DNA of 3,729 nucleotides from a virus (lineage: Duplodnaviria > Heunggongvirae > Uroviricota > Caudoviricetes): IMG/VR virus record IMGVR_UViG_2563366840_000013. The stretch is one strand, 5' to 3'. The notes under the pieces are model-generated. The model made no database searches, was not told where the DNA came from, and saw nothing but the letters and a program-made list of their open reading frames with translations. The position numbers were made by a program, and so were the translations under genes. This document shows, piece by piece, positions 1 to 3,729 of this stretch. Every line of letters starts with the position of its first letter. Position 1 is the first letter of the stretch.

Positions 1-201
1 GAAAACGCCCTTCGCAGCATTGCCCGTCAGGCTAATTCTGAAATCAAAAAAGCCAGACAGCAGTTTCCGGATAAAAACGTCGATGACATTTGCCGTAGCG
101 TACTGAAGAAGCACCGCGAAACGGTAACGCTGATGGGATTCACACCGACTCATTTAAGCCTGGCAATCGGCATGTTAAACGGCGTCTTTAAGGAACGATG
201 A
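1..201 (+). CDS. 3' end of an upstream CDS (partial, 66 codons, product not recognised)
   Basis: Frame 1 is open from the window edge to TGA at 199-201 (translation ...RETVTLMGFTPTHLSLAIGMLNGVFKER). Followed by a hairpin plus T-run. GC-typical composition. Confidence 0.5.
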   Translation, partial: ENALRSIARQANSEIKKARQQFPDKNVDDICRSVLKKHRETVTLMGFTPTHLSLAIGMLNGVFKER

Positions 202-221
202 ACATGAAAAGCAAAATTATC

Positions 222-247
222 AGGGAGCTACAGGCTCCTTTTTTATT
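222..247 (+). terminator. Intrinsic (rho-independent) terminator after the upstream CDS
   Basis: Stem GGAGC (224-228) pairs with GCTCC (234-238), loop TACAG, followed by TTTTTTATT. Lies about 20 nt after the TGA at 199-201. Confidence 0.6.
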
Positions 248-274
248 GCTCGCATTTACCCCCAAGCGTATTAA
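246..274 (+). promoter_or_regulatory. Candidate sigma70 promoter for the TraR-like operon
   Basis: TTGCTC (246-251) as -35, 17-nt spacer, TATTAA (269-274) as -10, about 25 nt upstream of the ATG at 300. Motif match only; not verified. Confidence 0.3.
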
Positions 275-299
275 CCAACAATTCAGGGATTAATGGAAG

Positions 300-521
300 A
301 TGGCAGACATCATTGATTCAGCATCAGAAATTGAAGAATTACAGCGCAACACAGCAATAAAAATGCGCCGCCTGAACCACCAGGCTGTATCTGCCACTCA
401 TTGTTGTGAGTGTGGCGATCCCATAGATGAGCTAAGACGCCTGGCCGTTCAGGGTTGTCGGACTTGTGCAAGTTGCCAGGAAGATCTGGAGCTTATCAGT
501 AAACAGAGAGGTTCGAAGTGA
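300..521 (+). CDS. TraR/DksA-family C4-type zinc-finger protein (73 aa)
   Basis: ORF of 73 aa with the C-terminal four-Cys motif CxxC...CxxC (HCCECGDPIDELRRLAVQGCRTCASCQ) typical of TraR/DksA-type RNAP secondary-channel regulators. Possible SD AGGGA at 285-289. Stop TGA at 519-521 overlaps the next start. Confidence 0.75.
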   Translation: MADIIDSASEIEELQRNTAIKMRRLNHQAVSATHCCECGDPIDELRRLAVQGCRTCASCQEDLELISKQRGSK

Positions 522-769
522 GCGTAATTCACTCTCAGGCACTGCGTGAAGCGGCAGAGCAGGCAATGCCTGACAACTGGGGATTTGACGCGGACCTTTT
601 CCATGAGCTGGTAACACCATCGATTGTGCTGACACTGCTGGATGAACGGGAAAGAAACCAGCAATACATCAAACGCCGCGACCAGGAGAACGAGGATATT
701 GCGCTAACGGTGGGGAAACTGCGTGTTGAGCTGGAGACAGCAAAAATCAAAACTCAACGAGCAGCGTGA
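518..769 (+). CDS. Hypothetical protein (83 aa), translationally coupled to the TraR-like gene
   Basis: GTG start at 518-520 overlaps the upstream stop (GTGA); SD GAGAGG at 506-511 with 6-nt spacing. Acidic, helical-looking translation, product not recognised. Frame stays open for 52 codons beyond the TGA at 767-769. Confidence 0.55.
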   Translation: MSVIHSQALREAAEQAMPDNWGFDADLFHELVTPSIVLTLLDERERNQQYIKRRDQENEDIALTVGKLRVELETAKIKTQRAA

Positions 770-931
770 GTAGAAGGTGTTATCTCGGATGGAAGTAAGC
801 GTATTGCTGAACTGGAGGCCTGGGTTGAATACACAAGAGCTGCATACGTAAGAGCAAAAGACAAGGGAGATTTGATCAGAGTTATTACCCGCCAACCAAC
901 GGGATTTTACGCTTACGTACCATGTAATTAG
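770..931 (+). other. In-frame open continuation of the 518-769 ORF past its TGA (52 codons to TAG 929-931), no credible own start
   Basis: Codons 770-928 are in the same frame as 518-769 and stop-free (VEGVISDGSKRIAELEAWVEYTRAAYVRAKDKGDLIRVITRQPTGFYAYVPCN). The only in-frame start-like codon is TTG at 872. Could be a gene remnant or a readthrough extension. Confidence 0.3.
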
Positions 932-1067
932 GAATCCTTGAAGTGGCAGCCTAACTGCGGATACACTGAAATGGCGATTTGGTAACATGTTTCGCACAAG
1001 GCTGTTACTACACTTAGAGATAATCAGCCATGATTAAACGCTTTGTAAAAAGTAAAAGGAAATTACA

Positions 1068-1682
1068 ATGAAAAAATCAATACTAATTTTAGGGCTTACG
1101 TTAATTGTCTCATCTCAAATACCATCGGCAATGGCAAAAAATGAATCAAAACTATGGGTTGTTGTTGATCGAACGGAAAGACATACCTGCCCTTCAAGTA
1201 AATGTGGAGTGGCTGGGAAACTATTTTTCAGGGAAGGCGTAGATTTTCTAGAAAAAAAAGGTGAATGGGTTCGTATAACTGAGCCATATTCAGCCTCATG
1301 TGTTGGAGGGGAAAGCGAATATATTAAAGAAGGTAATAAATCCTGCACAAGAAAAAATGGAATCGTTAATGGCAAGTTTTCAGAATGGGTTAAACTTAGT
1401 GATCTTAGCAGTGAAAGGCCATCAGATCCTGCTGAAAATGCGAGCGGAGATGATACTTTAATCAAAGGATCTGATGACTACCGTATATACAAAAAAGAGT
1501 TTTCTTCGGCAGCTAGGAAGTTAATAAATGAAGGGGTCTGCACGGAAAGCGATTTTAAGGAAATCGGAGGGTGGATGGCATCAAGCAATAAGGGTGAAAA
1601 CATCTATTTCACATATTGCGGAGGAATGACGTTGTCGAACAGAATATATCTAGACGTTAAAAGTGGAAAGACTTTTAGATAA
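1068..1682 (+). CDS. Secreted (signal-peptide) cysteine-rich protein with SH3b-like segment, AT-rich cargo gene (204 aa)
   Basis: N-terminus MKKSILILGLTLIVSSQIPSAMA has a basic n-region, hydrophobic core and AxA cleavage motif, with no lipobox. Mature part has 6 Cys. Segment RHTCPSSKCGVAGKLFFREGVDFLEKKGEWVRI resembles bacterial SH3 domains. SD AAGGA at 1056-1060, 7 nt before the ATG. Hand-counted GC of 60-nt lines is about 28-40 percent. Terminator downstream. Confidence 0.8.
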   Translation: MKKSILILGLTLIVSSQIPSAMAKNESKLWVVVDRTERHTCPSSKCGVAGKLFFREGVDFLEKKGEWVRITEPYSASCVGGESEYIKEGNKSCTRKNGIVNGKFSEWVKLSDLSSERPSDPAENASGDDTLIKGSDDYRIYKKEFSSAARKLINEGVCTESDFKEIGGWMASSNKGENIYFTYCGGMTLSNRIYLDVKSGKTFR

Positions 1683-1751
1683 TATGATATTACCAATGAC
1701 AGCATTAATTTAATGCCTCCATAGAATTATCTCCAGGAAGTAAGTATAAGA

Positions 1752-1790
1752 AAAGCCCGCACAATGAGCTGCTGCGGGCTTTGTGTTATT
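1752..1790 (+). terminator. Intrinsic terminator downstream of the secreted-protein gene
   Basis: GCCCGCA (1755-1761) pairs with TGCGGGC (1773-1779), extendable with flanking A/T pairs, 11-nt loop, followed by TTTGTGTTATT. Confidence 0.55.
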
Positions 1791-1975
1791 CGCCATATTT
1801 TATGAAGCAAATACGACACTATAGATAATTAAGCGTTACTGGTTGTCGATTCCTCACTCATTCCTGCTGATGGCTGTCTTCTTGTATGTGCCATTGAAGG
1901 GTAATATCGCGTAAAAAGATACCGGAAGTATCCGCGCCGCCATGATTGTCTTTCTCCTGATGCAGGAAAAGCAGA

Positions 1976-2095
1976 ATGACTAGATCAGCAGCAGAGCGCA
2001 AAGCCGATCAGAGAGCCAAGCAAGCATCATCCGGTATGCGTAAGCTGGAGCTTGTACTTGATGCTCAGGAAATTGAAATGCTGGAGCGTAACTGA
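1976..2095 (+). CDS. Small basic protein (39 aa), possibly the N-terminal part of a TGA-interrupted gene
   Basis: ATG at 1976 preceded by AGGAAAA (1964-1970); in-frame stop immediately upstream at 1958-1960. Translation MTRSAAERKADQRAKQASSGMRKLELVLDAQEIEMLERN. Ends at TGA 2093-2095, after which the same frame stays open to 2314. Confidence 0.45.
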   Translation: MTRSAAERKADQRAKQASSGMRKLELVLDAQEIEMLERN

Positions 2096-2314
2096 GCCAC
2101 GCGCCGCTTCAGGCGTGCGCCTTACGAGTTTGGTGAGTACATAGCATTACTGAGCCGCCAGGATGATGCACGTGTGCGCTGGCGTATAAAATCGATTAGC
2201 AGAAAACGTTGCCGTAAGTGCGGCGAGAGAGTTCCTGTTAATTCATGCCCGTGTAATGGTGACTCACAATACTGGGTGACCAAAGGCTGGCACGAAACAA
2301 AATTAATGATATAA
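2096..2314 (+). other. In-frame continuation after TGA encoding a zinc-ribbon-like segment (72 codons to TAA 2312-2314)
   Basis: Same frame as 1976-2095. Translation ATRRFRRAPYEFGEYIALLSRQDDARVRWRIKSISRKRCRKCGERVPVNSCPCNGDSQYWVTKGWHETKLMI has a CxxC-x9-CxC motif. No ATG in frame; a possible GTG start at 2174 with AGGA at 2160-2163. Confidence 0.35.
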
Positions 2315-2342
2315 ATCTCTGTGACATGTCACGGAGGCGGCA

Positions 2343-2771
2343 ATGAAATTAGACCAGCAATATCTAAAAGATCTACTTATCGCATTCGAAAAAACTCGTG
2401 GCCCTGACACGATGCTTAGTGAACTAGAGGATAATGGCTTTAATAGATATGACCAAGATTTTATTTTCCATATGCGATTATTATGTGACTACGAATTAAT
2501 AGTCAGGGTTGATGGAAAACCTGGGTTCGGTCATATAATGTCCAAAGCGTTAGGGGAAGGTGTTGGATATAGTTGGATCGAAGTACCACTGAGGTTGACA
2601 GCAAGAGGGCATGATTTTATTGCTGACTTACGTCAAAAGGATGTCTGGCAAGCTATAAAAACAAACTTTAAGGATGAGGGAATTAGTACACTTATGAGTG
2701 TTTCAAAATCACTAGCAAAAGGCTTTGCAAAGAAAAAGATAAAAGATATTACAGGAATAGATATTGAATAA
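2343..2771 (+). CDS. DUF2513-like small protein, AT-rich cargo gene (142 aa)
   Basis: Strong SD GGAGG at 2333-2337, 5 nt before the ATG. N-terminus MKLDQQYLKDLLIAFEK and the segment GHDFIADLRQKDVWQAIKTNFKDEGISTLMSVSKSLAKG resemble my recollection of the phage-associated DUF2513 family. Hand-counted GC about 32-40 percent. Terminator downstream. Confidence 0.75.
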   Translation: MKLDQQYLKDLLIAFEKTRGPDTMLSELEDNGFNRYDQDFIFHMRLLCDYELIVRVDGKPGFGHIMSKALGEGVGYSWIEVPLRLTARGHDFIADLRQKDVWQAIKTNFKDEGISTLMSVSKSLAKGFAKKKIKDITGIDIE

Positions 2772-2816
2772 TTCTTAGCATCAAGCAACTACTGCCTTTG
2801 GTGGAAATTATATCTG

Positions 2817-2842
2817 AACTCGCTACGGCGAGTTTTGTTTTA
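2817..2842 (+). terminator. Intrinsic terminator after the DUF2513-like gene
   Basis: AACTCGC (2817-2823) pairs with GCGAGTT (2828-2834), loop TACG, followed by TTTTGTTTTAT. Confidence 0.6.
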
Positions 2843-2854
2843 TGGAGATGATAA

Positions 2855-3022
2855 ATGCACTTCCGAGTCACAGGAGAATGGAATGGAGAGCCATTCAACA
2901 GAGTTATCGAAGCAGAGGACATCAATGACTGCTATAACCACTGGATGATATGGGCGCAGATAGCACATGCAGAAGTAACCAATATTCAAATTGAAGAACT
3001 GAAAGAACACCAAACCGCCTGA
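2855..3022 (+). CDS. Small hypothetical protein (55 aa)
   Basis: ATG at 2855 with SD GGAG at 2844-2847 (7-nt spacing); in-frame TAA immediately upstream (2852-2854). Translation MHFRVTGEWNGEPFNRVIEAEDINDCYNHWMIWAQIAHAEVTNIQIEELKEHQTA. Stop TGA 3020-3022 lies in the loop of the next terminator hairpin. Confidence 0.5.
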   Translation: MHFRVTGEWNGEPFNRVIEAEDINDCYNHWMIWAQIAHAEVTNIQIEELKEHQTA

Positions 3023-3037
3023 TGGCGGTTTTTTATT
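3012..3037 (+). terminator. Intrinsic terminator (8-bp perfect stem)
   Basis: AAACCGCC (3012-3019) pairs with GGCGGTTT (3024-3031), loop TGAT, T-run 3029-3034 then ATT. Confidence 0.7.
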
Positions 3038-3048
3038 GGAGACAAGAA

Positions 3049-3393
3049 ATGTCAGATTTGGCTATGAAGGTTTTGAAATGGCAATCGACTTGCGATGTCG
3101 GCATCAGTAGCGCAACTCTTGCCTCAATCGCATGTGGACTGAAAAAGAATATCTATGGTCATCACTTCGGCGCTCCACATGACGCAGCCGATTTCCGACG
3201 ATGCGTTGCACTTGTTGAGCAGATCCCAGAAATCAGGGATTCATTCGACAAGGTTGCAAAGCGCGTTCCGGCATTCAAAGGAATCCTCAACGAATGGGAT
3301 TCACTCGTTGCTCTGTTGAAGTCTGAAATGAAGACGTACGGGAACAAAGCACCAGAGACTTACAGAAGAATCAGCGAGCTACGCAAGGACTAA
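3049..3393 (+). CDS. Hypothetical protein (115 aa; start moved from the track's 3022 to ATG 3049)
   Basis: The track ORF 3022-3393 would begin inside the terminator hairpin. The in-frame ATG at 3049 has SD GGAG at 3038-3041 (7-nt spacing) and gives MSDLAMKVLKWQ.... GC-typical composition, product not recognised. Confidence 0.65.
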   Translation: MSDLAMKVLKWQSTCDVGISSATLASIACGLKKNIYGHHFGAPHDAADFRRCVALVEQIPEIRDSFDKVAKRVPAFKGILNEWDSLVALLKSEMKTYGNKAPETYRRISELRKD

Positions 3394-3462
3394 CCATAAA
3401 ATAACACCACCTCACACTCGATGAGGCCTGTTCATTGCTCAATGATATCCAGACCTACCATC

Positions 3463-3486
3463 GCCGCATCAATGCGGTTTTTTATT
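3463..3486 (+). terminator. Intrinsic terminator upstream of the AlpA-like gene
   Basis: CCGCA (3464-3468) pairs with TGCGG (3473-3477), loop TCAA, followed by TTTTTTATT. Shares the 14-nt string GCGGTTTTTTATTG with the terminator at 3012-3037. Confidence 0.55.
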
Positions 3487-3513
3487 GCCTGATTTGCAGG
3501 TTCGATTCCCTAT

Positions 3514-3729
3514 TTGGAGATAGCACTCATGCAACACGAACTACAGCCTGATTCACTGGTTGATTTGAAATTCATCATGGCCGATACTGGCTTCGGTAAA
3601 ACCTTCATCTATGATCGGATTAAGTCCGGAGACCTTCCAAAAGCCAAAGTTATCCACGGGCGAGCAAGATGGTTATATCGTGACCATTGTGAATTCAAAA
3701 ATAAGCTCTTAAGCCGCGCCAATGGGTAA
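3514..3729 (+). CDS. alpA: AlpA-family (phage Vis/excisionase-like) HTH transcriptional regulator (71 aa)
   Basis: Translation LVDLKFIMADTGFGKTFIYDRIKSGDLPKAKVIHGRARWLYRDHCEF fits the AlpA/Vis pattern (L..V...TG.s..tIY..i..G.fP.p.K.g.r..W...d...w). SD GGAG 9 nt before the ATG. Complete ORF ending TAA at 3727-3729. Confidence 0.75.
   Translation: MEIALMQHELQPDSLVDLKFIMADTGFGKTFIYDRIKSGDLPKAKVIHGRARWLYRDHCEFKNKLLSRANG

Follow-up and report, generated by a model that had tools for sequence, protein, structure and literature searches.

The stretch of DNA considered here (the window) is 3,729 nt long, belongs to the Caudoviricetes virus record IMGVR_UViG_2563366840_000013, and runs from the end of an orf61-like gene to torI. 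It is very probably the promoter-distal end of the early-left (pL) operon, or exo-xis region, in a lambdoid prophage that occupies the argW (tRNA-Arg)/dsdC site of Escherichia coli. An earlier note, made from the letters of the window and its open reading frames (ORFs), had placed the backbone genes on one strand, and every ORF with family support does lie on the + strand. Two of these genes are low in guanine-cytosine (GC) content and are called cargo genes 1 and 2. The features are laid out as follows (aa, amino acids; SD, Shine-Dalgarno sequence).

1-201, + strand: 3' end of an orf61-like gene (phrog_303), from a phrog match and comparison with lambda.
222-249, + strand: hairpin and T run resembling an intrinsic terminator, behind the orf61-like gene (-10.2 kcal/mol, z -2.1).
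300-521, + strand: orf73 homologue for a TraR/DksA C4 zinc-finger protein of 73 aa (PF01258, phrog_54).
518-930, + strand: ea22 pseudogene, with an Ead/Ea22 N-terminal fragment at 518-769 (83 codons), from frame comparison with lambda.
817-2806, + strand: replacement segment relative to lambda, GC 0.409, in place of the ea22 C-terminus and ea8.5.
1068-1682, + strand: cargo gene 1, for a predicted exported protein of 204 aa (phrog_8310), with SD AAGGA at 1056-1060.
1752-1782, + strand: hairpin terminator after cargo gene 1 (-18.6 kcal/mol, z -2.6).
1836-1943, + strand: remnant of a umuD-like S24 peptidase gene with internal stops, from RefSeq annotation and intact relatives.
1976-2314, + strand: phrog_536 gene for a zinc-ribbon protein, 112 codons, with TGA at 2093-2095, from a phrog match.
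2307-2337, + strand: candidate cis-regulatory element of the DUF2513 gene, with TGaTATAAA at 2307-2315, GTGACATGTCAC at 2321-2332, and SD GGAGG at 2333-2337.
2343-2771, + strand: cargo gene 2, for a DUF2513 protein of 142 aa (phrog_585) with a predicted winged-helix fold of the MarR/PadR/TubR-like kind.
2816-2845, + strand: hairpin terminator after the DUF2513 gene (z -3.5).
2855-3022, + strand: homologue of lambda orf55 (phrog_676), from lambda comparison and a phrog match.
3012-3038, + strand: hairpin terminator overlapping the end of orf55, from its fold; its tail GCGGTTTTTTATTG recurs at 3474-3487.
3049-3393, + strand: phrog_1229 gene, 114 aa, function unknown, in a module that lambda, Chlobot, and strain TL20 lack.
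3463-3487, + strand: hairpin terminator after the phrog_1229 gene, from its fold.
3494-3509, + strand: 16-nt identity TTGCAGGTTCGATTCC to the argW T-arm, upstream of torI.
3529-3729, + strand: torI, for a KplE1/HK620-type excisionase (recombination directionality factor) of 66 aa, the last prophage gene, from identity to TorI.

Where does this stretch come from? Locus L064 of E. coli assembly GCA_000351905.1 (scaffold KB732923.1) contains the window with 100% identity, at positions 7659-11387. On the 5' side of the window in this source scaffold lie lambda P, O, cII, cro, a cI-type repressor, N, cIII, kil, and gam. On its 3' side lie an attachment (att) core and then the chromosomal genes dsdC, dsdX, dsdA, emrYK, and evgAS. 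The view that the window is part of a mobile element is borne out by these surroundings, with prophage genes upstream and the att core and core chromosome downstream. A run of 1240 N at L064 6419-7658, the expected place of bet, exo, orf60a, and orf63, ends right before window position 1, and it is because of this scaffold gap that the window begins inside the orf61-like gene. A deletion of bet and exo in the source prophage was considered and dropped, as the missing stretch consists of these undetermined bases.

The gene order is that of the exo-xis region. In lambda and Shiga toxin (Stx) phages this region carries orf60a, orf63, orf61, orf73, ea22, ea8.5, and orf55 (PMC8614690, PMC3824215), and in the literature it consists of a conserved block with variable genes behind it. 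The window holds the same distal position on the pL strand, between recombination genes and xis, with gam upstream in the source and torI at its end. From the conserved block (orf60a-orf63-orf61-orf73-ea22) it retains the orf61-like gene, orf73, and the N-terminal part of ea22, and its identity to lambda is 95.6% over 1-816 and 95.3% over 2807-3038, the latter covering orf55. In other words, the parts shared with lambda and the Stx phages are 95-96% identical and show the same architecture before xis. Further evidence comes from relatives. In two of them (H1 and H4) and in the isolated phage Chlobot the same DNA sits between lambda-type exo/bet/gam genes and xis/torI; in Chlobot the arrangement of 1-3038 is the same and is placed between exo and xis-int. 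The genes orf60a and orf63 (DUF1317 and DUF1382) lie just upstream in relatives and are hidden by the gap in the source. Compared with the lambda and Stx regions, however, ea22 is truncated in the window, ea8.5 has been swapped for a 2-kb segment carrying the exported SH3b protein, the umuD remnant, phrog_536, and DUF2513, the phrog_1229 gene is extra, and a TorI-type excisionase stands in place of lambda Xis.

The orf73 homologue is a member of the TraR/DksA family, whose hallmarks are a DxxDxA motif and four zinc-binding cysteines (PMC8614690). Its translation contains DIIDSA, which conforms to that motif, and four cysteines arranged as CxxC...CxxC. The protein matches PF01258 with 35.0 bits (cutoff 24.9) and phrog_54 with an E value of 6e-26, and its TIGR02419 score of 54.3 falls under the cutoff of 59.7.

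The 3' end of the window identifies the integration module. The product of the last ORF is identical to TorI (PDB 1Z4H) in 66 of 66 residues, and 74 nt after its stop codon lies the 16-mer CTGCAGGGGACACCAT, followed by dsdC. The same 16 nt have been published as the core that is duplicated in the KplE1 prophage at argW (PMC2951348). The last gene before the core at argW-dsdC is thus torI and, judged by its sequence, it is the excisionase of the prophage. The same TorI protein, and the same core followed by dsdC, are found in the module of KplE1 (CPS-53), HK620, and Sf6 (PMC2951348, PMC3509656). In KplE1 the integrase lies at the opposite end of the prophage (PMC2951348). Strain TL20, the closest relative with torI among complete genomes, has the same layout: its prophage of ~42 kb extends from tRNA-Arg(argW)-intS to torI, and a 22-bp direct repeat is present at both ends, the core agreeing with the published KplE1 core CTGCAGGGGACACCAT. 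Of the att repeats that the earlier note had called for, TL20 has both copies, and the source shows the core after torI. In another torI-bearing relative, Ecol_224, chromosomal genes and no integrase follow torI. KplE1 of K-12 differs in being a 10-kb remnant that has no repressor or exo-xis region, whereas torI of the window is joined to a lambda-type early-left operon. This exact combination occurs in 0 of 5426 complete E. coli genomes, the set to which all prevalence counts here refer, and the best coverage was 94%.

A second piece of argW is present within the window. The sequence TTGCAGGTTCGATTCC (3494-3509) matches the T-arm of tRNA-Arg argW exactly over 16 nt, and 200 shuffles gave 0 matches. 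Its place in the window is just past the mosaic junction on the 3' side, ~20 nt before torI; in the tRNA it is located directly 5' of the att core. With the att core on its other side, torI is thus enclosed by two pieces that adjoin each other in the 3' half of argW. The internal copy may be a relic of an older att junction. A scan of the window for tRNA and tmRNA genes found none, and a scan with Rfam returned a sub-threshold STnc420 hit (22 bits against 70) and nothing else. A separate observation concerns the metagenomic contig L061, in which a P4-like satellite (11660-20388) directly follows torI and an argW-type core as a tandem integration. Its genes include an integrase, an AlpA gene (PF05930), a primase, two Psu genes, and Ogr/Delta.

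The earlier note had taken the last ORF for an AlpA-like regulator and had regarded the window as part of a P4-type satellite or integrative island whose integrase would lie just beyond the 3' end. There is some ground for this, because the last ORF does encode a small winged-helix protein of the excisionase class with a weak HTH_17 match (E 0.008, below its cutoff), and P4-like satellites likewise have a small helix-turn-helix protein of this class at the end of the integrated element near a tRNA att site. The P4-like satellite of L061 also lies right after torI and an att core. However, the Phage_AlpA profile PF05930 gave no match to the last ORF at E <= 0.1, and a protein identical to TorI throughout is not an AlpA regulator. 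Lambda regulatory and replication genes surround the window upstream, and ~95% identity to the lambda exo-xis region runs through its backbone. What follows the 3' end in the source is the att core with dsdC, dsdX, and dsdA rather than an integrase, and intS of TL20 is at the opposite end by argW. The window and 10 kb on either side of it in the source are without an adjacent integrase, a primase (alpha), Psu/Sid/Delta, or a PF05930 match. The element in L061, for its part, is separate and tandemly integrated, and begins past the att core. These findings make a P4-type island highly improbable and leave the distal pL operon of a lambdoid prophage as the reading followed below.

Base composition separates the cargo from its surroundings. 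The two low-GC genes pointed out in the earlier note (1068-1682 and 2343-2771) were correctly delimited: GC is 0.380 (38%) in cargo gene 1 (0.298 at third codon positions, GC3) and 0.361 (36%) in the DUF2513 gene (GC3 0.287), compared with 0.465 (~46%) in the lambda-like flanks (1-816 and 2807-3729). For individual backbone genes, GC lies between 0.44 and 0.52. The earlier proposal of a mosaic, variable hotspot likewise stood up in the genome comparison. The left flank (1-816) is present in 3951 of the 5426 genomes and the right flank (2807-3038) in 2358, against 132 for cargo gene 1 and 183 for the DUF2513 gene. The junction of phrog_1229 and torI (3039-3729) occurs at a coverage of >=80% in 286 genomes. 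Parts of the window are found in 4606 genomes, and >=80% of it in only 111. In other prophages the interval from orf73 to xis is filled differently, for example by an ASCH protein with DUF4222, by a reverse-strand gene of 200 aa, or by DUF551 with Eag. Integration modules of other prophages also vary, with ybhC, icd, argU, torS, or argW as their sites. Thus, the interval from ea22 to xis is supported as a variable accessory slot, a variability already known in the literature; in this lambdoid prophage region the window is a new combination of cassettes.

The sequence of the slot contains a possible trace of how cassettes are exchanged. The 14-nt direct repeat GCGGTTTTTTATTG (3025-3038 and 3474-3487) forms the near-identical tails of two terminators and brackets the module at 3039-3473, which is missing from lambda, Chlobot, and strain TL20. 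This terminator-tail repeat suggests that cassettes may be exchanged at terminator boundaries.

What do the cargo genes encode? The 204-aa product of cargo gene 1 has a predicted signal peptide ending in AMA|K and six conserved cysteines. Its N-terminal part adopts an SH3b fold of the cell-wall-binding type, and its C-terminal part is an alpha/beta domain. The evidence shows a protein that would be periplasmic and peptidoglycan-associated. A low-confidence guess from fold similarity is that it acts on or at peptidoglycan in the periplasm, in the manner of lysogenic conversion or superinfection exclusion. Homologues with 60-69% identity are found in Pseudomonas and Aeromonas. In Pseudomonas (L006-L009, e.g., L006 6001-6615) a homologue with 62% identity is the gene right behind a tyrosine integrase on small islands, and the Aeromonas homologue sits in a prophage. 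The family seems to be integrase-proximal cargo across several genera. A lipoprotein form with 48% identity sits among housekeeping genes. The gene is rare in phages, being present in 1 of 50,697 phage records, and in several E. coli strains (hits H6, H9, H61, and H65) it is split by IS1: the match falls into two pieces over 1392 bp, and an IS1 transposase is annotated between them.

The DUF2513 gene is preceded by a conserved element. A perfect 12-bp palindrome, GTGACATGTCAC (2321-2332), lies between TGaTATAAA and the SD sequence GGAGG. In Escherichia, Enterobacter, Yersinia, and Cronobacter its core, TGACATGTCA, has been preserved in front of DUF2513, and in Serratia it shows one change, while the adjacent bases differ. 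The palindrome is present as a single copy per locus; other loci have it at L014 5975-6000, L017 ~3975-4000, L018 ~3975-4000, and L010 ~5965-6000. At the RNA level, pairing between the palindrome and the SD sequence of DUF2513 is possible (-10.8 kcal/mol, z -2.7). An operator is favored over an SD-occluding hairpin because it is the sequence, and not the pairing, that is conserved. One tentative guess from the predicted fold is that the DUF2513 protein is a regulator that binds DNA as a dimer and recognizes its own palindrome, which would make the latter a candidate operator.

The neighbor of DUF2513 is often phrog_536. In Cronobacter phages the phrog_536-DUF2513 pair has the same 28-nt spacing and lies just upstream of the gene for the terminase small subunit, and Yersinia has retained the pair. 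In Serratia, only a ~30-nt remnant of the phrog_536 3' end remains before DUF2513. DUF2513 is therefore the persistent unit of the two and can do without its neighbor. In Serratia prophages DUF2513 is found near integrases.

The earlier note had also pointed out that slots of this kind tend to gather anti-phage and conversion genes. On this view the slot would be a hotspot for defense or conversion, with at least one of the cargo genes serving in anti-phage defense, superinfection exclusion, or host benefit. Several findings are in keeping with this idea. Both genes are rare and patchy within common flanks, each has its own SD sequence and terminator, the 204-aa product carries an export signal and a fold of the peptidoglycan-binding type, and the two families recur beside integrases, the former on the Pseudomonas islands (and once in the Aeromonas prophage) and the latter in Serratia prophages. 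On the other hand, PADLOC (PADLOC-DB 2.0) gave no match for the 204-aa, phrog_536, or DUF2513 proteins, and its sole match in the window was that of an excisionase-like mad1 profile to TorI. A literature search with DUF2513, PF10711, the PHROG identifiers, and the RefSeq accessions of the cargo families found no papers. The 204-aa gene has no clear promoter, it is dispensable because IS1 interrupts it in some strains, and its more distant homologues are ordinary chromosomal lipoproteins. The position of DUF2513 upstream of the terminase small subunit in Cronobacter phages suits a phage regulatory role better than host defense. A defense or conversion role for either gene is accordingly unlikely, though it retains a small share of the probability.

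Decayed genes are present in the window as the earlier note had suspected, and they include the two TGA-interrupted frames it had reported. In ea22, a local frameshift relative to lambda leads to an in-frame TGA at 767-769, after which the frame is open to 930; RefSeq labels the gene in relatives 'frameshifted; incomplete' (pseudogene). The umuD-like gene is intact (151 aa, S24 peptidase) at the equivalent place in the related P22-like prophages L061 and L065. Its remnant in the window was too short to be confirmed by tblastn, and its assignment is based on RefSeq annotation and the intact gene of L061 and L065. In these two prophages (9356-9811, equal to window 1698-2153) the intact 151-aa ORF overlaps the first ~59 codons of phrog_536 in another frame. 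The defects in ea22 and umuD do not show that the phage is dead, because the viable phage Chlobot carries both the ea22 fragment and the umuD remnant.

The third decayed gene is a nonsense allele of phrog_536. The family consists of at least 394 clusters and is uniformly 112 aa long. At 2093-2095 the window has TGA where intact homologues have TGT, encoding the family-invariant Cys40. One alternative is that this TGA is a recoded codon, read as selenocysteine or by programmed read-through, so that the full-length 112-aa protein is made; if true, the prophage would encode a selenoprotein or a read-through protein. A selenoprotein gene is recognized by a UGA that aligns with a conserved cysteine and is followed by an open frame, and both hold here, with 72 codons past the TGA still open and conserved. 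The TGA haplotype is also common among complete E. coli genomes (63, compared with 80 for TGT), and it is shared by lambda-like and P22-like prophages (L001 14210-14212; L061-L066 9751-9753). However, no conserved hairpin of the kind expected for a selenocysteine insertion sequence follows the UGA: folding there (z -0.3 to -1.0) was no better than in shuffles and differs between two TGA alleles, and Rfam gave no match that supports recoding. TGT changes to TGA by a single base. Strain TL20 has a separate nonsense change, TGC to TGA at the invariant Cys79, which is consistent with simple decay. Past the TGA the sequences have diverged too little for a test of purifying selection. Recoding is thus exceedingly unlikely, and the best reading is a nonsense allele that spreads with the adjacent cassette. 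Three lost cysteines in phrog_536 of the window were considered as a further sign of decay and rejected, since the consensus of the family itself has Tyr50 and an intact relative carries Tyr99.

How might the genes in the slot be expressed? Terminator-like sites are more frequent in the window than expected (11 compared with 3.2). Five + strand hairpins, each behind a gene, lie at ~222-240, 1752-1782, 2816-2835, 3012-3031, and 3463-3478, with z-scores from -1.4 to -3.5. The earlier claim of independent expression signals for the two cargo genes stood in part: cargo gene 1 and the DUF2513 gene each have their own SD sequence and a downstream hairpin terminator, but the consensus scan gave no + strand sigma-70 promoter for either. 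Upstream of 1068 there are only weak 8/12 promoter candidates, of which the one at 938-967 is the sole one suitably placed. DUF2513 has a candidate extended -10 element, TGnTATAAA, which is conserved in Cronobacter and reads TATAGT in Serratia. In a lysogen, the DUF2513 gene would be the better candidate for expression from its own promoter, and the SH3b gene the weaker one.

This pattern brings the cargo genes close to the concept of a moron. Morons of lambdoid phages (a concept of Hendrix and Juhala) are extra transcription units between genes that are adjacent in related phages, and a promoter of their own is part of the definition. The cargo genes likewise lie between genes adjacent in relatives, deviate in GC, and have their own SD sequence and terminator, but a dedicated promoter is only a candidate (TGnTATAAA for DUF2513 and the weak 8/12 site for the 204-aa gene).

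A model for the whole region can be drawn from lambda biology. On induction, RNA polymerase modified by N would start from pL and read through the five intrinsic terminators. Read-through would express the accessory genes and, lastly, torI, and the prophage would then be excised by TorI and by IntS, whose gene lies at its opposite end. In the lysogen, pL would be repressed, and only units with their own promoter could be expressed. The cargo would have arrived by prophage-prophage recombination at the borders of modules, for instance at terminator tails or where genes end, and such recombination would be the reason that the interval from ea22 to xis is a variable accessory slot.

Several points weigh against this picture. 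The consensus scan of the window found no + strand sigma-70 promoter, and we infer both N read-through and expression in the lysogen from lambda. Fold similarity is the sole basis for the suggested cargo functions, and no search gave a match for the C-terminal domain of the 204-aa protein. The conserved sequence 5' of DUF2513 is in part a remnant of the phrog_536 3' end, so its conservation may be partly inherited rather than functional. Finally, the left end of the source prophage (intS and argW) is beyond reach and orf60a, orf63, and exo fall in the gap, so this particular prophage may or may not be complete.

The value of these findings is mainly corrective. What had seemed a P4-type island is the well-known exo-xis accessory region with an excision module of the KplE1 type; the current view of prophage biology is unchanged, and nothing here would surprise a phage specialist. 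The slot draws attention to two widespread and unstudied families, the exported SH3b protein (phrog_8310) and DUF2513 (phrog_585). A conserved palindrome accompanies the DUF2513 gene, and the operator hypothesis follows from it. Taken as a whole, the slot documents the exchange of short cassettes between lambdoid phages at the boundaries formed by terminators and gene ends.

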